IMG/VR virus record: IMGVR_UViG_3300033073_001045
Coordinates: 32,001-96,000 of that record
Reading direction: 5' to 3' (one strand)
Source: a virus
Taxonomy: Duplodnaviria > Caudoviricetes
DNA length: 64,000 nucleotides
In this document: in pieces, positions 10,469 to 48,876 of the stretch
Layout: every line of letters starts with the position of its first letter
Numbering within the stretch: the stretch's first letter is position 1
Made by a program: the position numbers and the translations under genes
Notes under the pieces: model-generated
What the model was told of the DNA's origin: nothing
Seen by the model: the letters and a program-made list of their open reading frames with translations, nothing else
Database searches by the model: none

Positions 10469-10926
10469 TAGATTTCTTCCAGAGATATATCAACGTTCCA
10501 AAATTCTTGTGGGTCTAGTCCACTTTCCATCTTTACATTTCTTCTAATAACATTAAATGAGGCAGACTGAAAGAAGGCTGTAAATATCTCATCTCTAGCA
10601 GAGACTCCGTTGTAAGATACTTTTACCTTAAAAGAACCCTTTCCTTTATTTAAATAAAAGGTTTTAAGATCTTGAGCTCCCATTCCACCATCTATTGTCA
10701 TAGAAGAAAATGATGGAATCATGCTCCATGAGGTGCTAATAGTTTTTTTATCAGCAATATGAATTTTTCTTAATGAGCCATTTGCCATTCTTGCTGTTTG
10801 CTCATGCCTATATATATCTGTAGAAATAGCTGACCTATTATGCTCAGACAACTTTGTCCATGTTGGTGTACTAGTTGTTGAGGTATCAATAAACAATGCT
10901 GATCCTACTGGTAGTGTTAAGCTCAT
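10468..10926 (-). CDS. distal tail (Dit-like) protein
   Basis: Immediately follows the tape measure; RMANGSLR motif. Confidence 0.6.
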   Translation of the reverse strand: MSLTLPVGSALFIDTSTTSTPTWTKLSEHNRSAISTDIYRHEQTARMANGSLRKIHIADKKTISTSWSMIPSFSSMTIDGGMGAQDLKTFYLNKGKGSFKVKVSYNGVSARDEIFTAFFQSASFNVIRRNVKMESGLDPQEFWNVDISLEEI

Positions 10927-31301: not shown

Positions 31302-31982
31302 CTAGTGTCCTCCAACATGAAGAACCTGTCCAGTCAGACTGGATGAACGTTTATCCATGAGAAGTTCAACTAAATTTGCCACATCGTCTAAATCAAAAAG
31401 CCTTTGAATTATCTGACTTGATATTGCAGTTTGATCTCCATTTATAAGGTGTTTACGGGTAAGCCCAGTTATTATTGGACCTGGAGCTATACAGTTAGCC
31501 CTTATATTTGTATGCGAAAGTTGTTTTGCAAAACCCTTAGTAAAAGATTCTACTCCAGCCTTTGAAGCAGAATACATAGTTGCTTCATTGGCCATATGAG
31601 CGGCAAGACTAGATATATTTATTATTGCAGTGTGTTCTTCTGGATCCATGTTTGAAAGGAATGCCTGACATGAATTAAATACCCCATTTAGATTTGTATT
31701 AATGACATCATAAGCTTTATCTTCAAAAAAGAATCCAGCTGGTGTTGGCTCATATATGCCAGCACAATTTATTAATACGTTAACCTTTTTGCCAGCATCT
31801 AATATCTTTTTTGATATTTTGTACATCTGCTTTAAGTCACGAACATCAGCTATTTCTGTATCAAAATCTGGCTCATATTGAGGTTTATATAAAGATATTC
31901 CAAGAACATCATGGCCAGCAGAATGAAGTCTTTGCGCTATGTGCTGTCCCATGCCTGAACCAGATCCAGTTATAACTATCAT
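31302..31982 (-). CDS. short-chain dehydrogenase/reductase (FabG-like)
   Basis: TGxxxGMG, NCAG, NISS, YSASK and N.IAPG motifs. Confidence 0.92.
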   Translation of the reverse strand: MIVITGSGSGMGQHIAQRLHSAGHDVLGISLYKPQYEPDFDTEIADVRDLKQMYKISKKILDAGKKVNVLINCAGIYEPTPAGFFFEDKAYDVINTNLNGVFNSCQAFLSNMDPEEHTAIINISSLAAHMANEATMYSASKAGVESFTKGFAKQLSHTNIRANCIAPGPIITGLTRKHLINGDQTAISSQIIQRLFDLDDVANLVELLMDKRSSSLTGQVLHVGGH

Positions 31983-32632
31983 TCTGAACCGTCCGAATAG
32001 TATGGATTCTTTCTGTTATGGTACCAATTTGGAAGTGCGTATCTTACACCACTCGTTACCGCATCAACTTCATGAACATAAACATAATTTGATGGGAAGA
32101 ACAATATGGTTCCAGCCTCTGGCTTTAAATCAAGTCCTGCATGTGGAAATCTAAGATTACCGCCTTCATAATCGTCATTTAAATATAGTAATGCTGATAG
32201 AACTCTGCTACTTATACCGTGATCAGAGTGTGCTGGCAAAAATCCGCTTTGCTTGTATTTAAGGACATGCATTGTTTTTTCTCTAGACTTAATATTTTTT
32301 TCCGCATATGGATACAAAGAAAAATAATGTTTTAGTCCAATTTCTAATGCACCAAATAGCTCAGAAGATATGAAGTGCTGTTCTTTGTAAAATCTATCAG
32401 AAGCTGGAATATCTTCTGGCTTTGGCAAAAATTTTTGCCAACAAAAAACAGTTTTTTCTGGGCCACCATGATCGTAATCCCATGCCTTCCATTCTTGAAC
32501 AAATGCAGACGAATAATCTTGCGACTCTTGTCTTTTTATTTCAAGCTCTTCTATCTTGTCAATAATAAGCTGTGGATCATTTATAATACCATTGTATTGA
32601 ACTACTCCTAAAGCGAGTTGCTTAAACTCCAT
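31979..32632 (-). CDS. 2OG-Fe(II) oxygenase, prolyl-4-hydroxylase-like
   Basis: HSD...LYLNDDYEGG...FFPS...HEV..V.SG.R. Confidence 0.9.
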   Translation of the reverse strand: MEFKQLALGVVQYNGIINDPQLIIDKIEELEIKRQESQDYSSAFVQEWKAWDYDHGGPEKTVFCWQKFLPKPEDIPASDRFYKEQHFISSELFGALEIGLKHYFSLYPYAEKNIKSREKTMHVLKYKQSGFLPAHSDHGISSRVLSALLYLNDDYEGGNLRFPHAGLDLKPEAGTILFFPSNYVYVHEVDAVTSGVRYALPNWYHNRKNPYYSDGSE

Positions 32633-33175
32633 TTAGCACTCCTTAAAATCTGGATCGATAAATTCTTCTTGCGTTGATTGCATGAAGAGGGCTGTGTATC
32701 TATTTCCACTTTCAATTTTTGAAACACCATGTAAATATTCATAGTCATTTCCTGGGAAAAATATTGCTGAATATTTTTTAGGGCTGTGAACAAAATCTTT
32801 TTTAGGGAAATATATGTCGCCACCAGTATACTCATCATTTAAATATATGACAGAGCTATACTCAATAAAAGGTTCTTTCTCTATTGCATCTATATGTGGA
32901 TTTCCGCTCATTCCTGCAGACCATCCAGACCCAAACGACTTAGTCACAATAACATCTTTCTCGGTTTGAAAGAATTCTTTTTGTACTGCATTAGATATCT
33001 TTGCATACTTTCTTAAAATATCCATGACCCTTTTATTATAAGGGAATGCCGTTCCCCCGTTTCTATCTGCATAATAATCTGGGTACGGGTTTATTTCTGA
33101 TGGCCTAATAATTTCAGAGATAAGAATCTCTGCATCTTCTGGAGATATAAAATCTTCAATAATTTTTATCTTCAT
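32633..33175 (-). CDS. 2OG-Fe(II) oxygenase, prolyl-4-hydroxylase-like
   Basis: HID...IYLNDEYTGG...FFPG...HGV..I.SG.R; likely start ATG 33175. Confidence 0.9.
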   Translation of the reverse strand: MKIKIIEDFISPEDAEILISEIIRPSEINPYPDYYADRNGGTAFPYNKRVMDILRKYAKISNAVQKEFFQTEKDVIVTKSFGSGWSAGMSGNPHIDAIEKEPFIEYSSVIYLNDEYTGGDIYFPKKDFVHSPKKYSAIFFPGNDYEYLHGVSKIESGNRYTALFMQSTQEEFIDPDFKEC

Positions 33176-33822
33176 CCTAGTGGTACCCAACTTTGCTCAT
33201 AGTATCCTCCGCTTGAAATAAATCTAAGAGGTGTTACGTCGTAAGCAATGGTTATTCTATCCTCTTCAAATGGCCAGAGACCAATACTATGAGGATGTCC
33301 AGTTTCAGACAATATTGCTCTATTGTTTTTATTTACATTTTCAAATGGTTTATCATTATGAATCTTATAGTAGGTAGAGCTTGGCTCAGCATTGACACAA
33401 TAGTATCCATGGAAGTATGGAATGCCCTTTCCTTCTGAATGATCATGATAAGAATCACTATTCTCTAAATCAACATGATTTTTATTTCCTTCTGAGTTAA
33501 ACCATCCATGCAACATGAATTGCTCTTTTTCAAAATCAAGGCCATAATATTCGCATGCCTCAATTGTCATTTTACGCAAAGCCTTATATAGTGCATAAAT
33601 GTCTTCATTATAGAACTGAAAGATGTTGTAGAAGTTATCGATTCGCTGAGGGTTGTAACTGTTAAAGTAGTCTTTTGGTGCATTTAGCAATACATCTTTA
33701 CCTACACCTGGAACTTGTCCGTTCTTTAGCTCTTCCTTTTTGTTAAGCAAATATTCTTTAAGACCGATAAGATCATTATCTAGATATGCTTCAAAAAATT
33801 TATGAGGCTTATTATTTTCCAT
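33172..33822 (-). CDS. 2OG-Fe(II) oxygenase-like (cupin) protein
   Basis: GWFN...HDH...HGYYCV...HPH...RITIAYD. Confidence 0.7.
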   Translation of the reverse strand: MENNKPHKFFEAYLDNDLIGLKEYLLNKKEELKNGQVPGVGKDVLLNAPKDYFNSYNPQRIDNFYNIFQFYNEDIYALYKALRKMTIEACEYYGLDFEKEQFMLHGWFNSEGNKNHVDLENSDSYHDHSEGKGIPYFHGYYCVNAEPSSTYYKIHNDKPFENVNKNNRAILSETGHPHSIGLWPFEEDRITIAYDVTPLRFISSGGYYEQSWVPLG

Positions 33823-34652
33823 TAGTTTATTATCCTTGTTCTATTTAAATATCTTTCTCCGCCAATTTTGTCGGTTTCAGATTTATCTATTACATATGCT
33901 ATATCATCATTATTAAATGGAAGCTGTTTAATATCTATACCAAACAGCCCACGAACATTTTTATCATTCTCTTTAACAAAATCATTATATTTATGAGTTA
34001 AAGAAAATGGAACATATCCATGACGCTCAAGAGGGATTGTGTTATTTGTAAAAAGTTCTGTTGGTGCACAGAGGAGGTTGTAATGCTTATGATTTATATC
34101 TATAGACATCTGTTCCTCTTCTCCATAATACTTTAAATGAGTTGGATACCCCAGCCACTTTATATCAGAGCTTAAACAAAATATAAAATCCCTGTCAATC
34201 ATTTTAACTGGACTATAATCTTCTGATTTAGACTTTATAGCCTCAACCATAAATAAATTTTTGTTTTTGTATTCTAGTTTATGGTTACCAGATATTATAG
34301 TTTGATTATTGTATCTGACAGATTCCATTTTTTCTATAAGCTTTATGTCCCAGTCTTTAGACATATAGACGCCATCTCCACACTGCATAAAGTAATCACA
34401 CACTAGTATCCTTGACCCATCAAACTTATGAGCTATTGGACTTTTTATTGAATCCCACTTTGTGTGCTTATATATTATCTTTACATGGCTTGCATCTATA
34501 TTAAATAAACGAGATCTTTCTACATTATTTTGATCTATAACATAAAGGGAAAGTTTATTTTTTCCACTAGACTTATTGACAATATCAGACAGCATAGCAA
34601 TCAGATCTTTATTTTGAAAACTATACACAAATATGCCAATACTTTTATTCAT
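33822..34652 (-). CDS. GT-A glycosyltransferase resembling GT60/Gnt1 (divergent)
   Basis: IFVYSFQN, DYFMQ.....KDWD.KLI and YYGEE..MSI match the GT60 pattern; the DSH motif position reads GDG. Confidence 0.55.
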   Translation of the reverse strand: MNKSIGIFVYSFQNKDLIAMLSDIVNKSSGKNKLSLYVIDQNNVERSRLFNIDASHVKIIYKHTKWDSIKSPIAHKFDGSRILVCDYFMQCGDGVYMSKDWDIKLIEKMESVRYNNQTIISGNHKLEYKNKNLFMVEAIKSKSEDYSPVKMIDRDFIFCLSSDIKWLGYPTHLKYYGEEEQMSIDINHKHYNLLCAPTELFTNNTIPLERHGYVPFSLTHKYNDFVKENDKNVRGLFGIDIKQLPFNNDDIAYVIDKSETDKIGGERYLNRTRIIN

Positions 34653-35302
34653 TATAGAAGTGGTATCCAGTGCTGCTGCGGTGCGTTAGCCTCAATTAAG
34701 CTTTTTAGTGGCATTATGTCATATGCAATTGTTACTCTAGGACCTTCCCAGTCCCAATCTCCCATTGCATGCGGGTGGCCCATTTCAGAAACAATCATTC
34801 TATTGTTTTTATTATGGTTTTCAACCTGCTTATCAAATACTTGATAGTATGTAATGGAAGGCTCTGCATTTACAGAATAGTAACCGTGAAAATAGGGGGC
34901 ATAAGGGCCACCGTGATCATGCCAATCAAGCTTGCCAGAATGATTGTAATTAATATTAAACCAGCCCTGTACCATATACTTTTGTTCTTCAAAATTGACT
35001 TCATAATATTCACATGCTTCCTTAATCATGTCTGATAGAGATTTATATAGTTTATATATTCCATCATGATAAAACTGAAATACATTATACTCACGCCATT
35101 TTATTGTAGATACACTTGATGACGATAGCCAAGCGTCTTTTTGATTTACTGGAGTGATTCCTTTAAGGGTAAGATTTTCCATATTAGAATATTGAGTCTG
35201 TAAAAATGTTGCAAGATCACCTAAATCGTTATCTAGATACCTTTCAAAAAATTTATGATCTTTGCCGCTTGGTTTATTCAGCATCATCGGATTGTAATCC
35301 AT
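34652..35302 (-). CDS. 2OG-Fe(II) oxygenase-like protein, paralog of 33172..33822
   Basis: Shared HKFFE.YLDNDL, YN.FQFY, GWFN, HDH, FHGYY.VNAEPS and GHPH motifs; start ATG 35302 after AGGAG. Confidence 0.75.
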   Translation of the reverse strand: MDYNPMMLNKPSGKDHKFFERYLDNDLGDLATFLQTQYSNMENLTLKGITPVNQKDAWLSSSSVSTIKWREYNVFQFYHDGIYKLYKSLSDMIKEACEYYEVNFEEQKYMVQGWFNINYNHSGKLDWHDHGGPYAPYFHGYYSVNAEPSITYYQVFDKQVENHNKNNRMIVSEMGHPHAMGDWDWEGPRVTIAYDIMPLKSLIEANAPQQHWIPLL

Positions 35303-36059
35303 CAGATACTCCTTTTCTATAATTTTTCCTTTGCCATATATAATTTTTATAATATGCAAATATTGATATTCTTCTTCGCTCTTCTTTTATTTTATTTTCT
35401 TCTATACTATGTTCTGAGTAATCAATTTCTAGGTCCCAATCATCTCTTTTAATTGGTATTATTTGAAATATTGGCGTTCCTTTAGGTATCGTACCTATAA
35501 AATTTCTTTTTAAGAAAAAAGCAGTAAATACTGGAGTGTGCCATTTATCCGTATCAATTATCCCAGATAAGGTCGTGAATGGCAAGTCATGCCTATTCAT
35601 TGGATGGGTTACAAGAATTGAGTATCCAGGTGGGGTCTCACAGTACCAATTTACTTTCCATCCAAAATGAAGTGGATGATGTCCCGTTGGTACTGCTACG
35701 TCAATCATATTTCTTTTGTCTATAATCATGGCTTCACCATCCCACGTTAGAGTAGGAAAGCCACTTTCATCTAAATCAACATGAACATCGTAATCAAGCT
35801 TATACATATAGCCAGCAGTTAGTGTGTCGAAAAATGGCATACATAGCTTTGTACCAGCTGCGCTACCATCTGTTCCTCTATCATTTATTGGATGGAGCTT
35901 TGATATATTATTTGATTTTTGAAAACGAGAAAGTTTTCTATACCAATCTGGCAAGAACCTAATAGATGGCTCTGGTTCTGATAAATAATTATTATGCTCT
36001 GGATCAAAGTTGGTACCAAAGGTAGCGGGTGTAAACTTAATGATTAAATTATCACTCAT
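35274..36059 (-). CDS. conserved phage protein (DUF6065-like, possibly dUTPase-like fold)
   Basis: PEP...LPDWY, K.CMPFFD...AGY, TPPGYS, G.IDTD and IPKGTP..Q.IP.KR motifs. Confidence 0.6.
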   Translation of the reverse strand: MSDNLIIKFTPATFGTNFDPEHNNYLSEPEPSIRFLPDWYRKLSRFQKSNNISKLHPINDRGTDGSAAGTKLCMPFFDTLTAGYMYKLDYDVHVDLDESGFPTLTWDGEAMIIDKRNMIDVAVPTGHHPLHFGWKVNWYCETPPGYSILVTHPMNRHDLPFTTLSGIIDTDKWHTPVFTAFFLKRNFIGTIPKGTPIFQIIPIKRDDWDLEIDYSEHSIEENKIKEERRRISIFAYYKNYIWQRKNYRKGVSDGLQSDDAE

Positions 36060-36762
36060 TACATAGCCCATCTATTATTTCTTTTGAGGCGGTCACTTCC
36101 ATTTCGTACATATATGACCCCCTTTCTATCACTCCAACAGTTTCGGTCTGCATATGTCTTTTTGATTTAGTAAAATAAAAATCAATAAATTCTGGTTCCT
36201 TTATTCTATCATTTTCGTTAGACTTTGTAAATGACCCAGATCTTTCTATAATAAATAAAGAAGGATCCTGTATTGTAGATTTAATTTTAAATTTTACATT
36301 TTCGTCTATAACCCATGGGGTATATATTTTAAAACATCTATCTGAGATTATATTATCGTTATTAATATCATATTCATTTGGTGACGGATAAAACTGCCTC
36401 TGCCAAACTTTATCTACAGAATAGAATATTTCATTTATAGGTTGTGACTTAAATATTCCTAAGTGACCAAGTGGTGGATCTGCTATTTGAACTAAGATGT
36501 CTGCATAATTATAATACTCTAATATAGCCTCTGTGTCGGAAATTCTTTTTACCGAAGGCTTGATAGAAAAAAATGATGCATAAAGATTTACTGGTTTTAA
36601 TATACTTGATGAATATTGACTACTGTACTTTACTTGATGCCAGTCTGCCCATTTTGGAAACATATTTGAATACGCCATAATCTCTGCAAATGTCATTGTA
36701 CCCATCTTAGACCATGACTCAGACTCATATGGTGTCTTTAATATATTCTTCTTAGTTTTCAT
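36052..36762 (-). CDS. hypothetical protein in tailoring block
   Basis: 236-aa coupled ORF; FKIYTPW...GVIERGS weakly echoes its neighbours. Confidence 0.65.
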   Translation of the reverse strand: MKTKKNILKTPYESESWSKMGTMTFAEIMAYSNMFPKWADWHQVKYSSQYSSSILKPVNLYASFFSIKPSVKRISDTEAILEYYNYADILVQIADPPLGHLGIFKSQPINEIFYSVDKVWQRQFYPSPNEYDINNDNIISDRCFKIYTPWVIDENVKFKIKSTIQDPSLFIIERSGSFTKSNENDRIKEPEFIDFYFTKSKRHMQTETVGVIERGSYMYEMEVTASKEIIDGLCNE

Positions 36763-37475
36763 TTAAATGTTTTCTTAAACCACTTTTTTGTTCTATATCC
36801 ATTTTGAAAAACAGATCTTACTGAAAGTTGACTTGCTCTATTTTGAAGATCAGAATCTCTATCTTTATTTATTTCACTTTCCCAGTCGTCACGTTTAAAA
36901 GGTATTACTTGAACAATTGGTGTGCCTTGTTTTATGACACCCTTAAAGCCCTTCTCAACAAAAAATGATAGGTATCCGTCAGAAGGATATGTATCTGTAT
37001 CTATTAGTCCAGGAATAGCTTTTATAGGACTATAGTCTGCATGCATTGGTGATATAAAAAGAGAACTATACCCATCCTCTGTTTTTGCAAGCCACATTGG
37101 GTGGATTCTTAATACGTCATTATGAAAATATGGAGGTATAGGGTATTCAGATATTTGTTCTTTTAAATGATGTGCTAATAAAAATTTTTGAAATTCCATG
37201 ACGTCATTTGCAACTTCAAATTTAACCCTATCTCCAGTTGCATCTATATTCATATCCATTGGACAAAGTAAATAATAACCAGCGGCCATGGAGTCAAATA
37301 CCGCTTGACACTTTTTTACAGTAAGCAGCATGTTGCCATTATAAACATTATTATCATTATTTAAATAGCTTTCTTGTTTTTTCCACCATTCTGGAATATG
37401 CTTTTGAATTGGTATAGGCTTTGGAAATACCTCTGCTAAAAATCTATACTTGGGAATAAACTCTATTTTACTCAT
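36759..37475 (-). CDS. paralog of 35274..36059
   Basis: IPEWWK, TVKKCQAVFD..AAGY, GYSSLF..P, GLIDTD and IKQGTPIVQVIPFKR motifs. Confidence 0.65.
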   Translation of the reverse strand: MSKIEFIPKYRFLAEVFPKPIPIQKHIPEWWKKQESYLNNDNNVYNGNMLLTVKKCQAVFDSMAAGYYLLCPMDMNIDATGDRVKFEVANDVMEFQKFLLAHHLKEQISEYPIPPYFHNDVLRIHPMWLAKTEDGYSSLFISPMHADYSPIKAIPGLIDTDTYPSDGYLSFFVEKGFKGVIKQGTPIVQVIPFKRDDWESEINKDRDSDLQNRASQLSVRSVFQNGYRTKKWFKKTFK

Positions 37476-38041
37476 ATAACTGGAATCCATTTCTGATAAT
37501 ATTGTCTATGTAAATACTCTAATGGAGATACATTTATATATACTGCCTCAAAATCATTACTTATATTATTAAACATTGCTTTTTGAGATGAGTGAAGTAT
37601 CATCAACAATCCAGGCTCTAACAATACTTCTTCTCCATTTATAAATACTGTGTCTTTGTCAGAAGAAATTACATATAGCCCCCAAAATGTTGTTCTAAAG
37701 CTTGGTGACATATCTAGTTCTACCTGAAGTGGCAGTGCCTTTTTGTCGAGAATTCGGGCATATAGATAGGGAAAACTTCTGTCAAAATTTATATCAAATT
37801 CTTTAAATGTCTCTTTTATTGAAAAACAAACCTCTTTATATATAGAATATATTTCTTTGCTATACATACCAAAAAAATTAAATGTTTTATGATCTACAAG
37901 TGATACACGCTTGGCTTTTTTTGCAACATTTTTACCAAATCCATTACTAATATCCACAACGTGTTCAAACATGGAATCTACCATTTCGTTGTAATTATGC
38001 TTTAAAAAAGCATTATCAATTACACTAATTTTTCTTATCAT
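37472..38041 (-). CDS. degenerate cupin/oxygenase-like protein
   Basis: FNFF...IY..YK, FWGLY, EPG.L..L, N.SPL..L and QKWIPVI echo the 33172/34652 paralogs, but the metal-binding His residues are absent. Confidence 0.5.
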   Translation of the reverse strand: MIRKISVIDNAFLKHNYNEMVDSMFEHVVDISNGFGKNVAKKAKRVSLVDHKTFNFFGMYSKEIYSIYKEVCFSIKETFKEFDINFDRSFPYLYARILDKKALPLQVELDMSPSFRTTFWGLYVISSDKDTVFINGEEVLLEPGLLMILHSSQKAMFNNISNDFEAVYINVSPLEYLHRQYYQKWIPVI

Positions 38042-38660
38042 CTGGCTCCCAAATGCTAATTGAATGCCATGCTGCTGGCATTATAGGGTCTTTATATGGG
38101 GCATGCTCTGACTCCAAAAGAACTTGTGGCTTTACCCCACCCATTATTTTATCTAATTCTTCAGATTTTGACAAGTCTATTCTTTTCATAAATGATATAA
38201 GTTTAGTCATTTTCATTTGTAGATCAAAACCAGCTTGTGTATGGGCCCCACCCTGCCTTACCAAAACATTGTAATAAAACATAAACATTGAGTAGCCTAA
38301 TATAGCTAAAGAAGAATTTATTCTTTTTCTTCTTTTATCTGGTACAGTATAAAATCTATCACCAAATGCAATATGGCAGTCTTTCTTTTTATCATATTGT
38401 GCAAATATTATTGAAGCCCAGGAGTCTGGATACTCATTATTAATGAAGTTAGAAAATACTGCCGTTCCAGGTTTATGGTTTGGTGTAGAATAAACACACT
38501 CTATTGCTCTTGAACCATATCTATCATTAAGTATTGTCCATTGAATCCAAGAGCCAGAAAGGTAATCTGGGTACTTTCTAAAAGTTGGGAATATATGTCC
38601 CTTGTACCAGATTACCCTTCTAAACCCATACGCCAATATCTGCTTGATATTGTTTAGCAT
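38025..38660 (-). CDS. hypothetical protein (possibly GNAT-like)
   Basis: 211 aa; FYTVPDKRRKRI and HTQAG weakly resemble GNAT motifs. Confidence 0.55.
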   Translation of the reverse strand: MLNNIKQILAYGFRRVIWYKGHIFPTFRKYPDYLSGSWIQWTILNDRYGSRAIECVYSTPNHKPGTAVFSNFINNEYPDSWASIIFAQYDKKKDCHIAFGDRFYTVPDKRRKRINSSLAILGYSMFMFYYNVLVRQGGAHTQAGFDLQMKMTKLISFMKRIDLSKSEELDKIMGGVKPQVLLESEHAPYKDPIMPAAWHSISIWEPDDKKN

Positions 38661-38663
38661 TAA

Positions 38664-40022
38664 TTATGCTGGAGGATTGTTAGGATCAACAGGATTTTCC
38701 TGCTGAGATAGCTTCCATTGCTGATATAGAGTTTCAAGTGAAGCTGCTAGTGTTTGTGCAGAGTCAGTGATAACTCCATCTGCATTAAGGTCTAATGGCT
38801 GAGAGTCATGTACCAATGCATTATCTGTAAAGAATACGTCGTAAGGTTCTGTGTTAATTGTAATAACTAGTTCCTTGCCTTCTGAAACTCTAAGTTCTAC
38901 TATTGGCTGCCAATCTGCAAATGTAGGTGAATATACTTGATCTGATTCAAGTACTTCTGTAACATTAACAAACTTTGCAATTCCATCTCTTTTTATTAGA
39001 ATATAGTGAGATACTGAGTATTTATTTCCATTAATAACAATAACCTTATCAACAATATGAGCAGCAAGTGCTGTAATTGTTGTCTCATACTGTGTATTTA
39101 TTACTGGATTTTCTGATGACCACCCAGCAAAATATTCTGCTAGTGGAGTTCCGCTAGATAAATCTAGGCCATCAATATTAGCTGAATAAAGAACATCACC
39201 GACAGAAAGGTTATGTGCTAAAACTAATCCTTCTGGAACCTTTGAGCTAATAAGTGTATCTGCACCAATTGATTTAACTGGTGTGAATCCAAATGGAGTA
39301 AATCCGAATGGTGTAAATCCGAATGGCGTAAAACCAAACGGTGTAAATCCGAATGGCGTAAAGCCAAACGGTGTGAATCCAAACGGTGTAAATCCAAATG
39401 GAGCAAAACCAAATGGAACAAAGCTGAATGCTGTTGTTACGTTTACAGACGAAGCTGAAGTACCAGAATTACCATTAGCATTTGTTGCATAAACATTATA
39501 TGTTTGTTGTGTGCCCATTTCCTGTCCAACGCTTATAGATGTAGCTGATGTATCTCCAGCTTTACCATCTGAAGCAGTCCAGTGATAATTTGTAATTGCT
39601 TTTCCACCGCTTGCTGGGGCTGACCATGAAACAGAGTCTGTTCCAGCTGAGGGAGAAGATGCACTTGGTGCATTTGGTGTTGCAGGAACGGTTGTCGCTG
39701 TAACAGCACCTGATGCACTTGAAGCAACTGAGTTACCAGATGCATTTGAAGCAACTACTGTAAATGTATAACTTGTATCTGAAAGCAAACCAGTTACTGT
39801 AAGTGGTGATGAAGATCCAGTTGCTGTGAATCCGCCTGGTGACGATGTTACTGTATAAGATGTAGCAGCTGGTGAGTTAGCTGGCAAGCTAAATGATACA
39901 GTTACTGCACCATTATTATATGGTCTTCCAGTTCCAACATCTGATACAGATGTAATTGATGGTTGTTTTGGCTCAAGAAAATCATTTGCTCCTTGGCTCA
40001 TTCTACCTGCTTGTTTTGACAT
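38664..40022 (-). CDS. FN3-domain protein with (PFGFT)n repeats and C-terminal Hint domain
   Basis: Two FN3 domains (VTGLLSDTSYTFTVVASN; VSWSAP..GG..ITNY); 9 PFGF[TA] repeats; Hint blocks. Confidence 0.85.
   Translation of the reverse strand: MSKQAGRMSQGANDFLEPKQPSITSVSDVGTGRPYNNGAVTVSFSLPANSPAATSYTVTSSPGGFTATGSSSPLTVTGLLSDTSYTFTVVASNASGNSVASSASGAVTATTVPATPNAPSASSPSAGTDSVSWSAPASGGKAITNYHWTASDGKAGDTSATSISVGQEMGTQQTYNVYATNANGNSGTSASSVNVTTAFSFVPFGFAPFGFTPFGFTPFGFTPFGFTPFGFTPFGFTPFGFTPFGFTPVKSIGADTLISSKVPEGLVLAHNLSVGDVLYSANIDGLDLSSGTPLAEYFAGWSSENPVINTQYETTITALAAHIVDKVIVINGNKYSVSHYILIKRDGIAKFVNVTEVLESDQVYSPTFADWQPIVELRVSEGKELVITINTEPYDVFFTDNALVHDSQPLDLNADGVITDSAQTLAASLETLYQQWKLSQQENPVDPNNPPA
38805..39272 (-). 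other. Hint (intein-like) domain, 156 aa
   Basis: Block A SIGADTLI...G.V.A.NL.VGD.L.S; block B SVSH; blocks F/G VITINTEPYDVFFTDNALVHD followed by Ser. Confidence 0.8.
39282..39416 (-). repeat. 15-bp tandem coding repeat, 9 units (8 PFGFT + 1 PFGFA)
   Basis: Units such as tgtgaatccaaatgg and cgtaaaaccaaacgg vary almost only at synonymous sites. Confidence 0.95.
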
Positions 40023-40046: not shown

Positions 40047-41900
40047 TTAAGCTGATAGGTCTCCAAAGACCAACCATCCGCTTGCTGTTTTCATTGCTGT
40101 TGCAACTGAGTTTGTAGTTCTTAATTTTAGACCTGGGGTTCCAACTACACTGTTAGTTGAAGCAAACTGTGCACCTGTACCTGACTCTTGATAAAAGTCA
40201 ATTGATTGACCTGTTGAATATCCTGTAGCAGGCAAAGTAATTGTTACTGCTCCAGTAAGTGGAACAAACTTATCTTGTTCTCCTGATGCAAGTGTTGCAG
40301 AGGATGAGATTGCTGTTGCAAAAGCGGTTATAGATGGAACTCCAGCTTTTACCTGTGTGCCATCTGAGAAAACAATACCAGATGATGGTGTAACTGTTGT
40401 TGCCTCAAATGCTCCAACCTTTAGAGCATCCATTGAGCCCTGTGCAAAATTAACTGTTGTTGTTGGTTCATCTGTTACACCCTTAAAAAGCTTCCACTTT
40501 CCATCAGATGTATCTTTAACTAAACCTTGGTGTGCATATGTTCCATCATTATATGATGCTACAAAGCCTAGGTCTACTGAGTTTGAATTGTTTCCTTCAC
40601 CTAAATAAATTACTGGATCAGCTGTTGTAAAGTTTGTTGTATTTACTGTTGTAGTTGTTCCAGATACTGTTAGGTTTCCAGATATTGTTAAATTACCAGA
40701 TAGTGTTTGAGATGCAGCATCTGTTTTTACTAATTTAGTTGTATCTGCAATTCCGTGTACATTTGTTGTATCTGCTTCGTGAGCTGATAGCGCAGTAGAT
40801 GCTGCAGATGTTGCTGCTGTCTGAGCATCTGATGCTTTACCATCTGCATAAGTTTTTGTTGCTAGTGCTGAAGTATCTGCAATTCCATGAACATTTGTTG
40901 TATCTGCTTCGTGAGTAGAAACTGCATTGTCAGCATAAGATTTTGTAGCAAGTGCAGATGTATCGGCAATTCCATGTACTGAGGTTGTATCCGCAGCATG
41001 TACTCCAAGTGCATCAGAGGCTGCAGTGATTGCTGCTGCTTCTGCATTATCTGCAGCTGTATCAGCATAAGACTTTGTAGCAAGAAGTGATGTATCTGCG
41101 ATACCATGTACTGAAGTTGTTGTTGCATTGTGTGTAGAGACTGCTCCAGTTGCAAAAGACTGAGCTGTAGTACCTACAGTATCTGCATAATTTTCAGCTG
41201 CTGTTATTGCTTCTGACTTTTTAGTATCTGCATAAGCTGCAGAAGATGTTCCTAAAGATGTAATTAGATTTTCTGCTATTCCATGCTTTGTGTCTGTGTA
41301 ATTCTTAGCTGCGTTTAGAGAGTCAGCAACATCTGCATCTGTTGCAAGAACTGATGTGTCTGCAATTCCGTGTACATTTAATGACTTATCTGTATGTATT
41401 GTTAGTGCAGCAAGATCTTGTGTTTGCAAATATTCTGCATACTCTCTGCTTGCAACCACTGTTAAATCAATTTCTGATGTTGGGACTTTACCTTGTGCGT
41501 TTAGTGATGCAACGCCATTAGCAGCTCCACGATCATCCTGTGGGATATATGTAGCATCTGCTGTATTTTGTATTGCAGTTTCTCTTGCGTCTACATAAGA
41601 CTTAAGTGCAATTACATTTGAGTCTACTGTAATTTCAATTGTATTTGTGCCGTCATTGTATGACTTTGTGAGTCCAGCTCCCAATGAAAGGGCATTATTA
41701 ATAGCATCCTGTGAGATTTCGCCGATAGCAACATCTGAGTTGTTAGCGTATGAAAGAGCAGTCCAGGTGCTTGTTCCGTTACCAAACTTAAATAGATTTG
41801 TGTCTGTTTCAACACCCATTTCACCAGCTGCTAGAACTGGATTTGTTGTGGACCACTGTGAAGCAGTTCCTCGTCTTACTTGAATTCTTACTGTTGCCAT
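40047..41900 (-). CDS. fibre protein with Mtd/hyaluronidase-type N-terminus and His repeats
   Basis: RIQVRRGTASQW...NPVLAAGE.G.ETDT..FK.G.G; five H-x7-HGIADT repeats. Confidence 0.8.
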   Translation of the reverse strand: MATVRIQVRRGTASQWSTTNPVLAAGEMGVETDTNLFKFGNGTSTWTALSYANNSDVAIGEISQDAINNALSLGAGLTKSYNDGTNTIEITVDSNVIALKSYVDARETAIQNTADATYIPQDDRGAANGVASLNAQGKVPTSEIDLTVVASREYAEYLQTQDLAALTIHTDKSLNVHGIADTSVLATDADVADSLNAAKNYTDTKHGIAENLITSLGTSSAAYADTKKSEAITAAENYADTVGTTAQSFATGAVSTHNATTTSVHGIADTSLLATKSYADTAADNAEAAAITAASDALGVHAADTTSVHGIADTSALATKSYADNAVSTHEADTTNVHGIADTSALATKTYADGKASDAQTAATSAASTALSAHEADTTNVHGIADTTKLVKTDAASQTLSGNLTISGNLTVSGTTTTVNTTNFTTADPVIYLGEGNNSNSVDLGFVASYNDGTYAHQGLVKDTSDGKWKLFKGVTDEPTTTVNFAQGSMDALKVGAFEATTVTPSSGIVFSDGTQVKAGVPSITAFATAISSSATLASGEQDKFVPLTGAVTITLPATGYSTGQSIDFYQESGTGAQFASTNSVVGTPGLKLRTTNSVATAMKTASGWLVFGDLSA

Positions 41901-44221: not shown

Positions 44222-47056
44222 TTATTGCTGCTGTGATGATTTCCATTCTTGGTACAGTTGCTCTAATGATGTTGCCAGGCTTTGACTGCTTGAGCTTATT
44301 GCTCCTGGTGTTTGTGCATTAAACTCATGTGAGTCGTGAACAATAGCATTGTCTGTAAAAAATACATCGTACGGCTCTGTATTAATTGATATAACCAAAT
44401 CCTTTGATTGTTGATGCCTGAATTCAAGAATTGGCTGCCAGGCATCGTACAAAGGAGAATAAATGCTATCTGTTTCAAGTACGTCATATACTTTTACAAA
44501 CTTAACTTCATCATTTCTCTTTACTAAAATATAGTGAGAAAGTGAATATTTATTTCCATTTATAATTATAACCTCATCAACTATTCTTGCAGATAACGAC
44601 ACAATAGTTGTTTCATAGTTTGTATCTATGACAGGATTTTCTGCCGACCATGATCCTAAATATGAAGAAAGCGATTGTCCAGATGTTAGGTCTAGGCCTT
44701 CTATATTTGCTGAGTATAATACGTCTCCAACAGAAAGGTTATGTGCTAAAACTAATCCTTCTGGAACTTTAGATGCAACTAATGTATCTGCACCAATTGA
44801 TTTAACTGGAGTAAATCCAAATGGTGTGAATCCAAATGGTGTAAAACCAAATGGTGTAAAACCAAATGGTGTAAAACCAAATGGTGTAAAACCAAATGGT
44901 GTAAAACCAAATGGCGGAATATAACAAGCATTTGGTATTCCAAGCAAAGAAATAATTTCTGCGCTAGATAGATTTGGATTAGATGTGGTGCCAGTTATCA
45001 TACTGTAACCAGTTCCAGTATTAGGGTAGGCACCTTGACCACCATTTGCAGTATATGCTCCATAATAGTTACCACTAGGTCCATGACACATTACGTATAT
45101 ATTATATCCTGGAGCCTGATACTGATATCTATTAATACTAATTCCAGTTGGGAAACTTATATATCTTGTGTCATATGCAGTTCCAGCAATTGGTGACTGT
45201 GAAACAATTTGTCCAGCTAACCCAGGATCTGATGTTCCAGTATTTTGATTTGTAGAAAGTGTCCAATCGCCATATGTTCCATCAGCGGTTGTTGAGCCTA
45301 CATAATTTGGCACGTACTTATAAACAACTGCTGGCTCTTGATAAATATATGAGCTAACACTAACTGTAACTGGTAGATCTGCTTGCTGCACTGAATATGT
45401 TCCAGCTGAAGGTGTTTGACTAGCAATCTTGCCAACTAATGAATTGTTTGATGTTCCAGTTCCAGCTGCATAGTAAATAACATAGTTAGTTCCATTATAT
45501 GCGCTTTGAGATCCAACAAAATTTGGAATAGTTACTGAAACTGGAGGATTTACTGTAGCAGTAGCATATCCAGATGATGCTACTGGATTTGATGTTCCAG
45601 CAGAGTTTGTTGCAGTAGCAAAAGCACGATATCTTATTCCATTTTCAACATCGCTAGCATCAACAGTATATGATTGCGGTGACGTACCATTTCTTAGTTC
45701 AACACCATCTGAAATTGATTGTGGTACTGAACCAGCTTTAGCAATAATCTTTACATTATATGATGTAGGGTTATTCTCCCAACCACTTGTTGATGCCGTA
45801 ATTGTGTCTCCAGCATATACTTCTCCAGTTGGAGACAAGAATGCTGTTCCGTTTGCTGGTATTTTATATGCAGATGTAAATACACCAGAATTTGAATCCC
45901 AATAATATTCTTGTGTTGGATTTTCAAGTGTGATGGTTGACGGTGTTCCTTGGAATCCACTTGAGGTTCCATATATTCTTACTTTCCATGGACCAGACTC
46001 AACTCCTGCTTGATAGCAAGTTATATAGCTTGATGTGGAATTTATTCCTGTCATTGATACTGGACCAAAATCTGATCCGTCTGGCCATAATGAATATATC
46101 TCATATCTTGTTGGAGTTATATTATTTAGTGACCATTCAATTTTACCCGCATATTGATCATATAGTCCAGTTGCAGTTATTGTTGCAGTTACAGATGGCT
46201 TATTTGGAAGAAGATCAAGGATATCTTTGCTTGATCCAGTTCCAGTAAATGTAAAGTTTTGATTTGCTGTAGCCCAACGCCACCACTCTAATGCTTGACT
46301 TGTATTATTAAATGGTTGAACAGATATGCCAAGGGTTGTCTTGCCAAATAAAAATGTAGGGTCTGGCGATCCAAAATCTTTGTCATAAAGATTATTTGTT
46401 TTTCCATTTATTGTTATTGTTTCCGCTGGTATTCCTGGACCCTGATATGTTACATAATATCCATCAGCACCTTCTGAAACATCCCAGAAAAATCTTATCT
46501 TTCCATTTAAATATCCGCTTCCATCTTGTTGAACAAAAGCTGTTGAATTTGCTATTCTTTGTGGTGGGAGTGGAGAGCTATCAATAGATGCGTGTACTGG
46601 TTCACTATCTGTTCCTCCAGTAACTGCAATAACTGTACATTTAATAAAATATCCAACCTCATCTTTTGTTAATATATAACTACTAGATGTTGCACCAGAA
46701 ATATCTAGCCATGTTGTTATTGTTTTATATCTTGTTGGTACATATGAGCTTCCGTTTTCTTGAAACTCCTCAACTCTTGAATTATATCCCTTTGACCATT
46801 GATATTTATATGAGTCTGGCTCAATTGCCCACGTTCCATTACTTACTGATACTGTTTGTCCAGCTCCATATCCAAATGATCCAGCAGACCAAGTAAATTC
46901 TGGAGCAGTAATATTTGATTGTCCTGAGTAAAAGTCAACCCATGCTGAGCCATTCCACATTAAAGCTTTTTTAGCAGACTTCCATGAGCCACCGTCAAAA
47001 ATGTTTAATTTTTTAGGACTATTCCAGCTTGAACCATCAAATATTTTAAATGACAT
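44222..47056 (-). CDS. multi-domain Ig/FN3/PASTA-like protein with (PFGFT)7 and C-terminal Hint domain
   Basis: IFDG.SW repeats; Ig-like GTW...SYKYQW; two PASTA-like units; same C-terminal module as 38664..40022. Confidence 0.85.
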   Translation of the reverse strand: MSFKIFDGSSWNSPKKLNIFDGGSWKSAKKALMWNGSAWVDFYSGQSNITAPEFTWSAGSFGYGAGQTVSVSNGTWAIEPDSYKYQWSKGYNSRVEEFQENGSSYVPTRYKTITTWLDISGATSSSYILTKDEVGYFIKCTVIAVTGGTDSEPVHASIDSSPLPPQRIANSTAFVQQDGSGYLNGKIRFFWDVSEGADGYYVTYQGPGIPAETITINGKTNNLYDKDFGSPDPTFLFGKTTLGISVQPFNNTSQALEWWRWATANQNFTFTGTGSSKDILDLLPNKPSVTATITATGLYDQYAGKIEWSLNNITPTRYEIYSLWPDGSDFGPVSMTGINSTSSYITCYQAGVESGPWKVRIYGTSSGFQGTPSTITLENPTQEYYWDSNSGVFTSAYKIPANGTAFLSPTGEVYAGDTITASTSGWENNPTSYNVKIIAKAGSVPQSISDGVELRNGTSPQSYTVDASDVENGIRYRAFATATNSAGTSNPVASSGYATATVNPPVSVTIPNFVGSQSAYNGTNYVIYYAAGTGTSNNSLVGKIASQTPSAGTYSVQQADLPVTVSVSSYIYQEPAVVYKYVPNYVGSTTADGTYGDWTLSTNQNTGTSDPGLAGQIVSQSPIAGTAYDTRYISFPTGISINRYQYQAPGYNIYVMCHGPSGNYYGAYTANGGQGAYPNTGTGYSMITGTTSNPNLSSAEIISLLGIPNACYIPPFGFTPFGFTPFGFTPFGFTPFGFTPFGFTPFGFTPVKSIGADTLVASKVPEGLVLAHNLSVGDVLYSANIEGLDLTSGQSLSSYLGSWSAENPVIDTNYETTIVSLSARIVDEVIIINGNKYSLSHYILVKRNDEVKFVKVYDVLETDSIYSPLYDAWQPILEFRHQQSKDLVISINTEPYDVFFTDNAIVHDSHEFNAQTPGAISSSSQSLATSLEQLYQEWKSSQQQ
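44333..44800 (-). other. Hint (intein-like) domain, 156 aa, second copy
   Basis: SIGADTLV...SLSH...VISINTEPYDVFFTDNAIVHD followed by Ser. Confidence 0.8.
44810..44914 (-). repeat. 15-bp tandem coding repeat, 7 units (PFGFT)
   Basis: Five consecutive identical tgtaaaaccaaatgg units plus two variants. Confidence 0.95.
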
Positions 47057-47064
47057 TGTATCTC

Positions 47065-48876
47065 CTAGTACTGAATATAAATATCTCCGACGGATACACC
47101 TGTAGGAGGAGTAGCGCTTGTACCGTAAGATATGGTGTTGCCAGTTATTGCTGTATTAGAATTTGAATATCCGCTAGAAATTGTTGCGGTGCCACCCAAA
47201 GAAACTTGTGTTCCATTTATGGTTATATAGCTATTCTCTAAATATGAATTTGAAATGCTAGAAACCAGTCTAACAGATCCGTTTGCTGTTTCTAATATTC
47301 CAGAACCAAGATCTGGTAAAGCAATAGTTCCAGTAAATACAGGATTATTTTTTGTAGCATATGTATTTTCTGCATCTGAAATAGATAAATAAGTTGCAAC
47401 TGCATTATCTACACTTAGGAAAGTTTCTGCAAGTGTTGCCTCTTTAAGATATGTAATATCTGCTTCTGATTTAGTTAAATATGAAGCTGTAGCATCTGTT
47501 AAAGACAGATATGTTGTTGCAGCATCAGACTCCTTTAAATATCCTACAATTTCAGCTCCAGTAGGTATAGTTACAACTCCAGTAAATATAGGATCATGTT
47601 TTGGAGCCTTTAATGCTACATTAGAAATAGTTTCATATGTTGTGGCTGCCAAAGATGAGTCTAGCTTTAATCCAATTGCTGTATTAATTGCAGACAAACC
47701 ATCTTGATTATTTGAAAGAGCTGTAGCTAGTTCTGCAAGAGTATTTAGTGTTCCAGGTGCTGATGCAACAAGAGCTGCAACTGCATCATCTGCATATTGT
47801 TTAGTAGCAATATTTGTTGGTATAACTGAATCTGCAAGTTTACCGCTTGAATCCAATCCAGCAAAACCATTTATTGCATTTCTGTCTGCTTCTAAAACAT
47901 AATCAGACAATGTGTTATTTAAATTAGATGTTAGTTCTGTTCTTAAATCATCAACTGCTCCAAGGGCAACTTGAAGTACTTGCCCTCTTGCTGAATTTGT
48001 TGCGGCAACCGCTCTAGCATTTGTAAAATAGAGATTTGTTCCTTCTGGAAGATCTGTAGTAGTATGAATACCTATATTTATATTTGCAACAGCTGAAGCT
48101 ATATCAGACGCAACCGCTGTTCTTGCTCTTGTGTCTGTAAAATACAGCCTTGATCCTTCTGATATATTTGAAGTTGTTAGGCCTCCAACCGCTGCTGTAA
48201 TTGCAGAGGATCTGGCATTTGCTTCTGATTGAATTGCAGCATTTCTTAGAATAACTTCGTTTGAAATGGCTGATTCAATTGCGGCAGTAAGAGCTGTAGA
48301 TATATCAAGATCTTTATCTGTTGCGTCTGTTGCTGCCGCTAAAATAGCTTCTGATTTAGCTGCATTTGCTTTTGCTGATGCATCTGTAGCTGCAGCAGAT
48401 ATTGCTTCTGCTTTTGCATTATTTGCCTTTGTAGTAGCATCTGTAGCTGCAGCAGATATTGCTTCTGCTTTTGCAATAGAAATATTTTCTTCTGCATTTG
48501 CTTCAGCTAACGAAAAGGCATTTGTAATGTTATCTGCTACTGCTGCTTCTGCTCTAGCATCTGTAAAATAAAGATTTGAGCCTTCTCTAATTCCTGTAGT
48601 TGAAACTGCATTTAAAGCTGCAGCAAAATCTGCAGAAATTGATATTTCATCTGGCAACTGAGACACATCAATTTTACCAACAGAATTTAGTGTAGCAATT
48701 CCATTTGCCTCTCCAGGCTTTAGTGCATACGAAGTAATATCGTTCCAATGTAGACCATTACCAATTTTAAACTTTAGAGTATCTGTTTCTATACCAATTT
48801 CTCCATTAAGCAAAATTGGATTATTTAGAGTCCAGTTTATTGCCAGGTCTCTTCTAAATTGTATTCTTATTGACAT
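47065..48876 (-). CDS. fibre protein with Mtd-type N-terminus and EG.NLYFT repeats
   Basis: RIQFRRD..NW...NPIL..GEIG.ETDT.KFK.G.G; three EG..LYFT..RA repeats; APGTLNTLAELA. Confidence 0.8.
   Translation of the reverse strand: MSIRIQFRRDLAINWTLNNPILLNGEIGIETDTLKFKIGNGLHWNDITSYALKPGEANGIATLNSVGKIDVSQLPDEISISADFAAALNAVSTTGIREGSNLYFTDARAEAAVADNITNAFSLAEANAEENISIAKAEAISAAATDATTKANNAKAEAISAAATDASAKANAAKSEAILAAATDATDKDLDISTALTAAIESAISNEVILRNAAIQSEANARSSAITAAVGGLTTSNISEGSRLYFTDTRARTAVASDIASAVANINIGIHTTTDLPEGTNLYFTNARAVAATNSARGQVLQVALGAVDDLRTELTSNLNNTLSDYVLEADRNAINGFAGLDSSGKLADSVIPTNIATKQYADDAVAALVASAPGTLNTLAELATALSNNQDGLSAINTAIGLKLDSSLAATTYETISNVALKAPKHDPIFTGVVTIPTGAEIVGYLKESDAATTYLSLTDATASYLTKSEADITYLKEATLAETFLSVDNAVATYLSISDAENTYATKNNPVFTGTIALPDLGSGILETANGSVRLVSSISNSYLENSYITINGTQVSLGGTATISSGYSNSNTAITGNTISYGTSATPPTGVSVGDIYIQY

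Follow-up and report, generated by a model that had tools for sequence, protein, structure and literature searches.

What would a domain of the kind found in inteins and Hedgehog proteins do at the very end of two phage fibre or decoration proteins? The question is raised by a 64,000-nucleotide stretch of Caudoviricetes DNA (positions 32,001 to 96,000 of IMG/VR record IMGVR_UViG_3300033073_001045), referred to here as the window. A preliminary description, made from the sequence alone, had noted a Hint-like segment in two genes and had envisaged two outcomes, a Hedgehog-like transfer or a splicing event joining a downstream helix to the preceding repeat. The relevant features are as follows.

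38664..40022, minus strand: gene 1 (open reading frame, 452 aa), encoding an FN3 pair, PFGFT repeats, a Hint domain and a helical tail
39279..39431, minus strand: low-complexity aromatic repeat of gene 1, about nine PFGFT-type units (aa 198-248), then P-V-K before the predicted cleavage site
38805..39272, minus strand: Hint domain copy 1 (aa 251-406, 156 aa), placed by the AF2 model and structure alignment
38667..38804, minus strand: tail copy 1 (aa 407-452, 46 aa), comprising Ser+1, a 17-aa linker, an amphipathic helix and a polar/Pro end
38700-38753, minus strand: helix of tail copy 1 (aa 424-441)
44222..47056, minus strand: gene 2 (944 aa), encoding Trp-rich repeats and an Ig/PASTA-like N-terminal part, then the repeat-Hint-tail module
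44807..44914, minus strand: PFGFT repeats of copy 2, seven units (aa 715-750)
44333..44800, minus strand: Hint domain copy 2 (aa 753-908), with Ser753, S-L-S-H and H907-D908
44225..44332, minus strand: tail copy 2 (aa 909-944), its helix at nt 44228-44281
30208-31269: fibre gene with collagen and Peptidase_S74 parts, in the same tail module

The N-terminal part of gene 1 consists of two FN3-like domains (Pfam fn3, E 2.7e-8) and has more than 1000 homologues; the PASTA match in gene 2 is weak. The N-terminal parts of the two proteins are unrelated. Copy 1 and copy 2 are 72.6% identical over 230 aa, with 68% identity between the Hint domains in the multiple alignment. Identity at the DNA level is only about 75%, indicating that the two copies were not recently duplicated. 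Other Phe/Tyr/Pro/Gly-rich repeats occupy the place of the PFGFT units in relatives of these proteins.

Used as a query, the window Hint domain gave no Hint match in Pfam, NCBIfam or a PDB sequence search, and PHROGs returned only a weak "virion structural protein" family. Prediction of the structure needed an alignment: AlphaFold run from the single sequence was useless (pLDDT 35), while the AF2 model of Hint plus tail built on a 105-sequence alignment reached a pLDDT of 92.6 and a pTM of 0.87. Foldseek and VIA-align matched 71 chains to this model at a Z of at least 8, and all of the best 50 of these 71 are Hint structures. The top match was BIL2 of the Tetrahymena BUBL1 locus (6y75; Z 17.4, rmsd 1.8 A over 133 residues, 19% identity), others being the DnaB mini-intein (Z 16.9), the Clostridium thermocellum BIL domain CthBIL (2lwy; Z 16.5, rmsd 1.7 A over 129 residues) and Hedgehog (1at0; Z 16.3). 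Model residues 3..158 align with intein residues 1 to the last, so that Ser251 superposes on residue 1 of the RecA, RadA, DnaE and PI-PfuI inteins and Asp406 on the terminal Asn. A profile of the family also matched 2lwy over its full length (E 1e-8). Together with 127 representative relatives, 73 of them at E<=1e-10, the 2lwy match and the Z of 17.4 place Hint homology far beyond chance. The modelled structure confirmed that both genes end in a true Hint fold, as the preliminary description had predicted; the comparison with Hog domains that it proposed supports the fold, but Hedgehog ranks no better than the inteins. Pfam recognizes the 105 aligned members sparingly (Intein_splicing in 21, PT-HINT in 7, Hint, PF01079, in 2 and Hint_2 in 2). 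Databases attach at most automatic "Hint domain" labels to the family, and a literature search of incomplete coverage yielded no paper describing Hint domains at the C-termini of phage fibre proteins. Two other identities were ruled out, that of a type B BIL (Pfam Hint_2) by the presence of a clear block G (L-V-H-D), and that of Peptidase_S74 by the fold, which is Hint, and by the lack of a Pfam S74 match in the window Hint proteins.

Position 1 of copy 1 is Ser251, whose codon (nt 39270-39272) forms the upper limit of the segment first described. Block B is S-V-S-H (aa 336-339, with S336 and H339 as catalytic positions), block F contributes D395 and block G H405-D406, the domain ending in V-H-D406 directly before S407. 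Copy 2 ends likewise in V-H-D908 before S909 and a 36-aa tail. The alignments showed that both domains keep every putative class-1 catalytic position and lack an endonuclease, for which 156 aa leave no space. The earlier reading of Ser1, block B S-x-S-H, His-Asp followed by Ser, and a missing endonuclease was thus correct for both copies. Across the family, position 1 is Ser in 53 sequences and Cys in 18 (one or the other in 71/75), block B has S/T in 100/102 and His in 93/102, block F has Asp in 92/105, and the terminal residue is Asp in 66 and Asn in 33 (99/104 together). There are two clades, one with Ser1 and mostly Asp-ending, the other Cys1/Asn. The possibility that this pairing reflects repeated co-evolution was rejected: a tree of 96 Hint domains shows one Ser/Cys change and two between Asp and Asn, and a single old split provides no evidence for a mechanistic link. 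Ser1/Asp characterizes one large clade of a phage-specific Hint family.

Members of this family lie at the very C-terminal end of fibre or decoration proteins, where they follow aromatic/Pro/Gly repeats, and are found at fibre ends in very distant phages, among them jumbo phages of Erwinia, Dickeya and Yersinia; a search with a 12-sequence alignment identified a relative on 233 viral contigs. Cultured relatives include Erwinia phage vB_EamM_Y3 and Dickeya phage AD1, whose collagen-like protein carries the Cys1/His-Asn form. The domain is followed by a median of about 5 residues, 1-8 in most of the family, and most members have neither a helix nor a nucleophile at +1. Ser+1 is present in 27/34 His-Asp members, and in the short-tailed Ser1/Asp relatives the tail is constant in length and reads S-x-[S/A]-[I/V]-stop. 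In the Cys1/Asn and Tyr/Phe-Asp clades the +1 residue is K, L, I, V, G or R, often as the single residue after the domain. The downstream helix, described initially as conserved, is indeed so in both copies and in about 100 relatives; its conservation, however, is confined to the PFGFT/PASTA clade. Within the 104 tail-bearing sequences, helix residues L181, Y185 and W188 (domain-construct numbering) are invariant, His-Asp-Ser is conserved at about 100% and Ser+1 at 99%. The AF2 confidence values (pLDDT 87-90 across linker and helix) and a beta-bridge assigned by DSSP in the linker suggest that the helical tail is docked on the Hint core, and the invariant L, Y, W face points to more than a packing role for the helix.

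Natural variants of the FN3 protein bear directly on the fate of the module. The Hint domain is present in 83/94 orthologues and absent in 11, and the orthologues without it stop 3-8 aa after the repeats and carry no helix. The four Hint-less alleles inspected are whole genes, in the same place after an Mtd_N fibre gene, and may be of one lineage. Whereas the flanks of an intein are contiguous in intein-less alleles, the Hint-less orthologues simply end. A search with the 45-aa tail alone, of low sensitivity since shared 5-residue words were needed, found no protein whose repeat runs straight into the helix with the Hint domain missing, the sole candidate being a truncated Hint-bearing fragment. 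Given that Hint-less alleles have no helix, that no Hint-less carrier of the helix was found and that most family members are helix-free, the helix appears to be part of the leaving Hint module; it looks like a lineage-specific appendage lying outside the mature protein. As most members do without it, the basic reaction should be independent of the helix.

These data are best accommodated if the Hint domain and helix cut themselves off the finished fibre or decoration protein, a reading to which we assign a probability of about 0.55. It is plainer than either of the two outcomes first envisaged, and is favoured over them from the Hint-less alleles and helix-free relatives. After folding, Ser251 (Ser753 in copy 2) would attack the Lys250-Ser251 peptide bond (copy 1 numbering) in an N-to-O acyl shift assisted by the block B Ser/His and the block F Asp. 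The resulting ester would be resolved, most likely by water, with the conserved terminal Asp perhaps serving as general base or cyclising. The Hint domain would then depart together with its docked tail, leaving an FN3 (or Ig/PASTA) protein that ends just after the PFGFT repeats, the same product as the Hint-less alleles encode. The module would in effect be a single-use, self-removing cap. It would be analogous in purpose to the self-cleaving Peptidase_S74 chaperone of another fibre gene of the same phage; the likeness, a C-terminal self-cutting module on a phage fibre, would be one of logic only, fold and chemistry being unrelated (S74 uses a Ser-Lys dyad). To our knowledge, the S74 chaperone is the only C-terminal module known to cleave itself from phage fibres. 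Intein/Hedgehog ester chemistry would be a second, unrelated route to the same end and one that appears to be widespread, this clade alone being represented on 233 viral contigs.

The type A BIL domains, represented by CthBIL and by Pfam PT-HINT and reportedly the subject of work by Amitai (2003) and Dassa (2004), are a close known parallel. Like these, the phage domain has a Hint fold with blocks A, B, F and G and no endonuclease, and sits in variable, non-conserved surface proteins rather than conserved enzymes; the +1 residue is not a nucleophile in most of the phage family, and cleavage is expected to dominate (PMC4031507). The differences are that the window clade has Ser1 instead of Cys1, His-Asp instead of His-Asn and a conserved Ser+1 (the Cys1 sister clade has His-Asn), that the domain lies at the very end of the protein with no toxin or other domain to release, and that it is phage-borne, behind an aromatic repeat and, here, with an extra helix predicted to be docked. 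Oxyesters are hydrolysed poorly without help, which is a point against self-removal. Type A BILs yield mainly cleavage products, and Asp is able to replace Asn in step 3, Asp-ending inteins using the same mechanism with Asp cyclisation (PMC4031507).

The conserved His-Asp-Ser and the fixed-length S-x-[S/A]-[I/V] tail are not obviously needed for pure N-terminal cleavage and as such speak against self-removal. Both would fit a reaction at the C-terminal junction.

Such a reaction is the essence of the foremost alternative, class-1-type protein splicing with Asp standing in for Asn, a reading that we consider unlikely. The Lys250 ester would be passed to Ser407, Asp406 would cyclise and the Hint domain would be excised, leaving the tail, which measures 46 or 36 aa in the two window proteins and four residues in the majority of Ser1/Asp relatives, peptide-bonded to the repeat. 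Every class-1 position is in place, from Ser1, block B S..H and the block F Asp to the penultimate His, terminal Asp and Ser+1, the last at 99% among the 104 close relatives and in 27/34 His-Asp members, and the C-extein of short-tailed relatives is fixed in length. The class 1 mini-inteins, Ser-only and Asp-ending ones among them (Ssp DnaB, Mtu RecA, gp41-1 and Aes123 PolB1), share the fold (Z 15-17) and the full catalytic set, +1 nucleophile included, His405-Asp406 corresponding to the rare Asp variant of the terminal Asn; Asp-ending inteins with Asp cyclisation have been reported (PMC4031507). Intramolecular transfer would moreover be a natural exit for a sluggish oxyester. Unlike class 1 inteins, however, the phage domain does not interrupt a conserved protein at a conserved site, the C-extein measures 1-8 residues in most relatives, and alleles without the domain stop after the repeats, with neither joined flanks nor a helix. 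The failure to find a repeat-to-helix protein, low as the sensitivity of that search was, and the confident placement of the tail on the Hint core by AF2 also argue against splicing. Lastly, with K, L, I, V, G or R at +1, often as the only residue after the domain, in the Cys1/Asn and Tyr/Phe-Asp clades, splicing cannot be the common function of the family.

The Lys250 ester might instead be attacked by a specific nucleophile other than water (candidates are lipids, glycans, cell-wall amines and lysines of other virion proteins), in a transfer of the Hedgehog or BUBL type in which the helical tail would recruit the nucleophile and the fibre would become covalently anchored or modified. This seems doubtful, more so than splicing. 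The Hedgehog autoprocessing domain is likewise a C-terminal Hint (Z 16.3 to 1at0) for which splicing is not needed, and the departure of the phage Hint together with a short, conserved amphipathic helix would parallel that of the Hedgehog Hint with its sterol-recognition region; the invariant L, Y, W face is consistent with such a role. The phage domain differs in having Ser1 rather than Cys1, in keeping the intein-type block G (His-Asp) and in showing no demonstrable sequence link to the sterol-recognition region, and the Pfam Hint model (PF01079) matches 2/105 members, the window domain not among them. The helix, moreover, is absent from most Ser1/Asp members and from the whole Cys1 clade. 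The best structural match, at Z 17.4, is to BIL2 of the BUBL locus (6y75/6tmm), and a paper by the depositors of that structure is said to describe the domain as mediating conjugation of a ubiquitin-like domain. BIL2, however, has Cys1 and Asn and a eukaryotic, polyubiquitin-like context, and no special relationship to it is shown because its Z, like that of Hedgehog, is tied with those of inteins. Gene content provides a further hint: in most related loci the Hint gene is followed by a 211-aa gene and a cluster of 2OG-oxygenase-type genes, and the four Hint-less loci lack the 211-aa gene and most of the cluster, two paralogue families of which are kept. This linkage is confounded by the shared ancestry of the phages. 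The 211-aa gene directly downstream of gene 1, at 38025-38660, had no Pfam, PHROG or PDB match, and a weak acetyltransferase lead in the protein atlas is below trust level. Finally, Hint-less alleles persist in otherwise syntenic phages, from which it follows that covalent coupling is not essential. A more specific version, still less probable, would make Hint plus helix the phage counterpart of the Hedgehog autoprocessing/transferase unit, a nucleophile recruited by the helix resolving the Lys250 Ser-ester with the terminal Asp as general base, so that the FN3/PASTA fibre is tethered covalently.

It is improbable that the module is a benign passenger, an intein-like hitch-hiker without an endonuclease that spread by recombination in repeat DNA, brings the phage no benefit and keeps its catalytic residues only because an uncut Hint would harm the host protein. 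Orthologous FN3 proteins do carry very different Hint flavours or none, the same module is attached to unrelated N-terminal parts, and Hint-less alleles appear functional. A homing endonuclease is absent, however, and the module occurs in 83/94 orthologues, twice in this genome and at fibre ends across very distant phages, with its extra helix conserved. This proposal concerns why the module persists and is compatible with the cleavage mechanism. Very improbable, finally, is a Hint fold that stays on the fibre as a non-catalytic receptor-binding or structural head, for although the distal C-terminal position is the usual site of receptor-binding heads, conservation peaks at precisely the catalytic columns, surface regions vary and Hint-less alleles exist.

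This clade offers a natural all-Ser, Asp-ending Hint and, for direct comparison of the chemistry, a Cys/Asn sister clade attached to the same host protein, the Hint-less alleles being natural controls. The appended conserved helix provides a clean test of whether an adduct-recognition region is used by non-Hedgehog Hints, and the small cysteine-free Hint domains are of practical interest for protein engineering.

Two genes of the window, which covers bases 32001-96000 of a 104-kb IMG/VR phage record, end in the module under study:

38664-40022 (-), ORF 1, 452 aa, carrying the Hint domain in its 3' portion
Ser251 (nt 39270-39272) to Asp406 (-), Hint domain copy 1, 156 aa
44222-47056 (-), ORF 2, 944 aa, N-terminal part unrelated to ORF 1 and the same repeat-domain-tail module at its end

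ORF 1 comprises two FN3-like domains, about nine PFGFT-type repeats, the sequence Pro-Val-Lys, the 156-aa domain and a tail, as the residues following the domain are called here. The modules of the two ORFs are 72.6% identical in protein and about 75% in DNA. The preliminary description had placed Ser at position 1, an S-x-S-H motif in block B and V-H-D followed by Ser at the end of the domain, with tails of 46 and 36 aa; all of these are present as described. Its claim that an endonuclease is lacking is likewise upheld, since a domain of 156 aa has no space for one. An 18-residue amphipathic helix lies within the final 46 residues of ORF 1.

Direct searches of Pfam, NCBIfam and PDB sequences found no match for the domain, and AlphaFold gave no usable model from the single sequence. 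An exhaustive HMMER search collected 127 representative relatives, the more distant ones having the classical Hint signature (Cys1, T-x-x-H-P and an H-N ending). Among 105 aligned members, 21 match Pfam Intein_splicing and 7 PT-HINT, and the alignment profile matches the bacterial intein-like domain 2lwy of C. thermocellum over its full length (E 1e-8). When fed the family alignment, AlphaFold produced a model (pLDDT 92.6, pTM 0.87) for which Foldseek returned Hint proteins only. In VIA-align the BIL2 domain 6y75 scored Z 17.4 (rmsd 1.8 Å, 133 residues), the Ssp DnaB mini-intein 16.9, 2lwy 16.5 and Hedgehog 1at0 16.3, values that count as tied. Since residues 1 to last of several inteins pair with model residues 3 to 158, Ser251 is the counterpart of Cys1 and Asp406 that of the terminal Asn. 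The domain belongs to the Hint superfamily; the fold proposed from the sequence is borne out by the model and its structural matches.

In the family alignment, position 1 is Ser in 53 and Cys in 18 of 75 sequences, block B has S/T in 100/102 and His in 93/102, and block F has Asp in 92/105. His (61), Phe (19) or Tyr (18) precedes the final residue, which is Asp (66) or Asn (33). Ser1 pairs with Asp in 45 members and Cys1 with Asn in 17, the combination of Ser1 and Asn occurring in only 4. In a tree of 96 domains, Ser/Cys switches once and Asp/Asn twice; the pairing is a single old split of the family and not a repeated co-evolution of the two positions.

Family members nearly always carry the domain at the very end of the protein; the median number of residues beyond it is about 5. 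Before it stand low-complexity Phe/Tyr/Pro/Gly repeats of many kinds. The N-terminal parts of these proteins match tail-fibre PHROGs and contain FN3, PASTA, Ig-like or collagen domains. Relatives of this clade occur on 233 IMG/VR contigs. Those closest to the window's protein are all annotated as hypothetical, with only FN3 or PASTA recognised; UniProt labels some uncultured-phage relatives "Hint domain containing protein", and in one GenBank record the copy is entered as a tail protein which "contains intein domain". A literature search found no paper on this Hint family. The Cys1/His-Asn form occurs in a collagen-like virion protein of cultured Erwinia, Dickeya and Yersinia jumbo phages. One example is gp112 of Erwinia phage pEa_SNUABM_16 (locus L001, 1963-3405), a collagen-like "virion structural protein" whose terminal Hint is canonical: it has Cys1, T-H-E-H-P and a V-H-N end, after which come Thr and nine further residues. 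Proteins of this type offer a ready cultured system for probing Hint processing.

Conservation of the tail was assessed in 104 distinct sequences of at least 50% identity. His-Asp-Ser is practically invariant, as are the Leu, Tyr and Trp on a single face of the helix, which is therefore under selection. The conserved downstream helix reported earlier thus stands, within a narrower range: it is found only in the PFGFT/PASTA clade and in a sister group whose helical tail is longer. In three sister-group proteins (P0018, P0025, P0294) a tail of about 95 residues, apparently mostly helical from its sequence, follows H-D-S; it also has the L..LY motif, so the helical appendage can grow. In other Ser1/Asp members four residues follow the domain, in the fixed pattern S-x-[S/A]-[I/V], and H-N-K-stop is a frequent ending in the Cys1 clade. 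The AlphaFold model, with pLDDT 87-90 for linker and helix and a beta-bridge within the linker, suggests that the tail is docked onto the Hint core.

Other fibre genes of the window are:

30208-31269 (-), collagen-repeat protein, 353 aa, ending in a Peptidase_S74 self-cleaving chaperone domain
40047-41900 (-), fibre-like protein with an Mtd_N (major tropism determinant N-terminal) domain
47065-48876 (-), fibre-like protein with an Mtd_N domain

The first Mtd_N protein (40047-41900) also has a repeated T-S-V-H-G-I-A-D-T-S motif. Because the Peptidase_S74 protein accompanies the Hint genes, two unrelated self-cutting C-terminal modules occur in one tail region.

More than 1000 homologues were found with the FN3 part of ORF 1. 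Orthologue analysis of 94 newly retrieved ones revealed a Hint of some flavour in 83 and none in 11, which end 3-8 residues past the repeats. Four Hint-less alleles, whole genes of the FN3-repeat protein in related loci, were checked:

L080, 6001-7050
L081, 6001-7122
L082, 6001-6807
L083, 6001-7092

All four are complete, lie within their contigs and follow an Mtd_N fibre gene as in the window; their products finish 3-8 residues beyond the Phe-Gly repeats. One such protein, aligned to that of ORF 1, is 48-53% identical to it and has the same N-terminus. The helix is absent from all four, and a tail-only search, of low sensitivity, found no Hint-less protein with it.

The conserved catalytic set argues strongly that processing would begin with an N-to-O acyl shift at Lys250|Ser251. 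We favour a second step in which Hint and tail would be released together, leaving a protein that ends just past the repeats: Hint-less alleles encode that same product, the helix is always accompanied by a Hint, most family members have neither a +1 nucleophile nor a meaningful C-extein, and type A BILs yield predominantly cleavage products (PMC4031507). A self-removing C-terminal end already has a precedent in this tail module, in the collagen-Peptidase_S74 fibre gene. Against simple release, Asp406-Ser407 is strictly conserved and the short tail of the relatives is fixed, features compatible with chemistry at the C-terminal junction, and with protein splicing. Asp-ending inteins are reported to splice (PMC4031507), and an oxyester is resolved most easily by an intramolecular route; splicing nevertheless appears unlikely. 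Hedgehog-like transfer, which the Hint-plus-helix layout and invariant helix face would fit, is more doubtful still, as most relatives have no helix and the existence of Hint-less alleles shows that coupling is dispensable.

Type A BIL domains and class-1 mini-inteins are the closest known families. Ser1 and His-Asp set the phage domain apart from the former; inteins differ in that their intein-less alleles have contiguous flanks, whereas the Hint-less alleles do not. New here are the clade-wide Ser/Asp/Ser chemistry, the conserved helix, the aromatic repeat linker and the natural Hint-less alleles.

Eleven tightly packed genes (31302-38660, -) come after the 452-aa Hint gene:

38025-38660 (-), 211-aa gene, function unassigned
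37472-38041, 34652-35359 and 33172-33822 (-), three paralogues of a family of about 190-235 aa
36759-37490 and 35274-36071 (-), two DUF6065 paralogues
36052-36762 and 33822-34652 (-), two further unassigned genes
32633-33190 and 31979-32632 (-), two 2OG-FeII_Oxy_3 paralogues
31302-31982 (-), short-chain dehydrogenase

The 211-aa ORF has a homologue (22-46% identity) directly behind the Hint gene in most of 76 related loci, and paralogue families including 2OG-Fe(II) oxygenases and DUF6065, conserved down to 22-30% identity, lie farther downstream. The 211-aa gene is missing from all four Hint-less loci checked, a joint absence that is only a lead because all these phages share ancestry and the four loci may represent a single lineage. 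The Pro-rich repeats before the Hint could be oxygenase substrates.

Two further genes lie elsewhere in the window:

10923-19070 (-), 2715-aa ORF, downstream of the head genes
24943-26352 (-), capsid maturation protease, 43-50% identical to that of Streptomyces phages of about 127 kb (Wakanda, BillNye)

The capsid protease and the PASTA domains of the fibres hint at an actinobacterial or other Gram-positive host, despite the window's GC content of about 36%.
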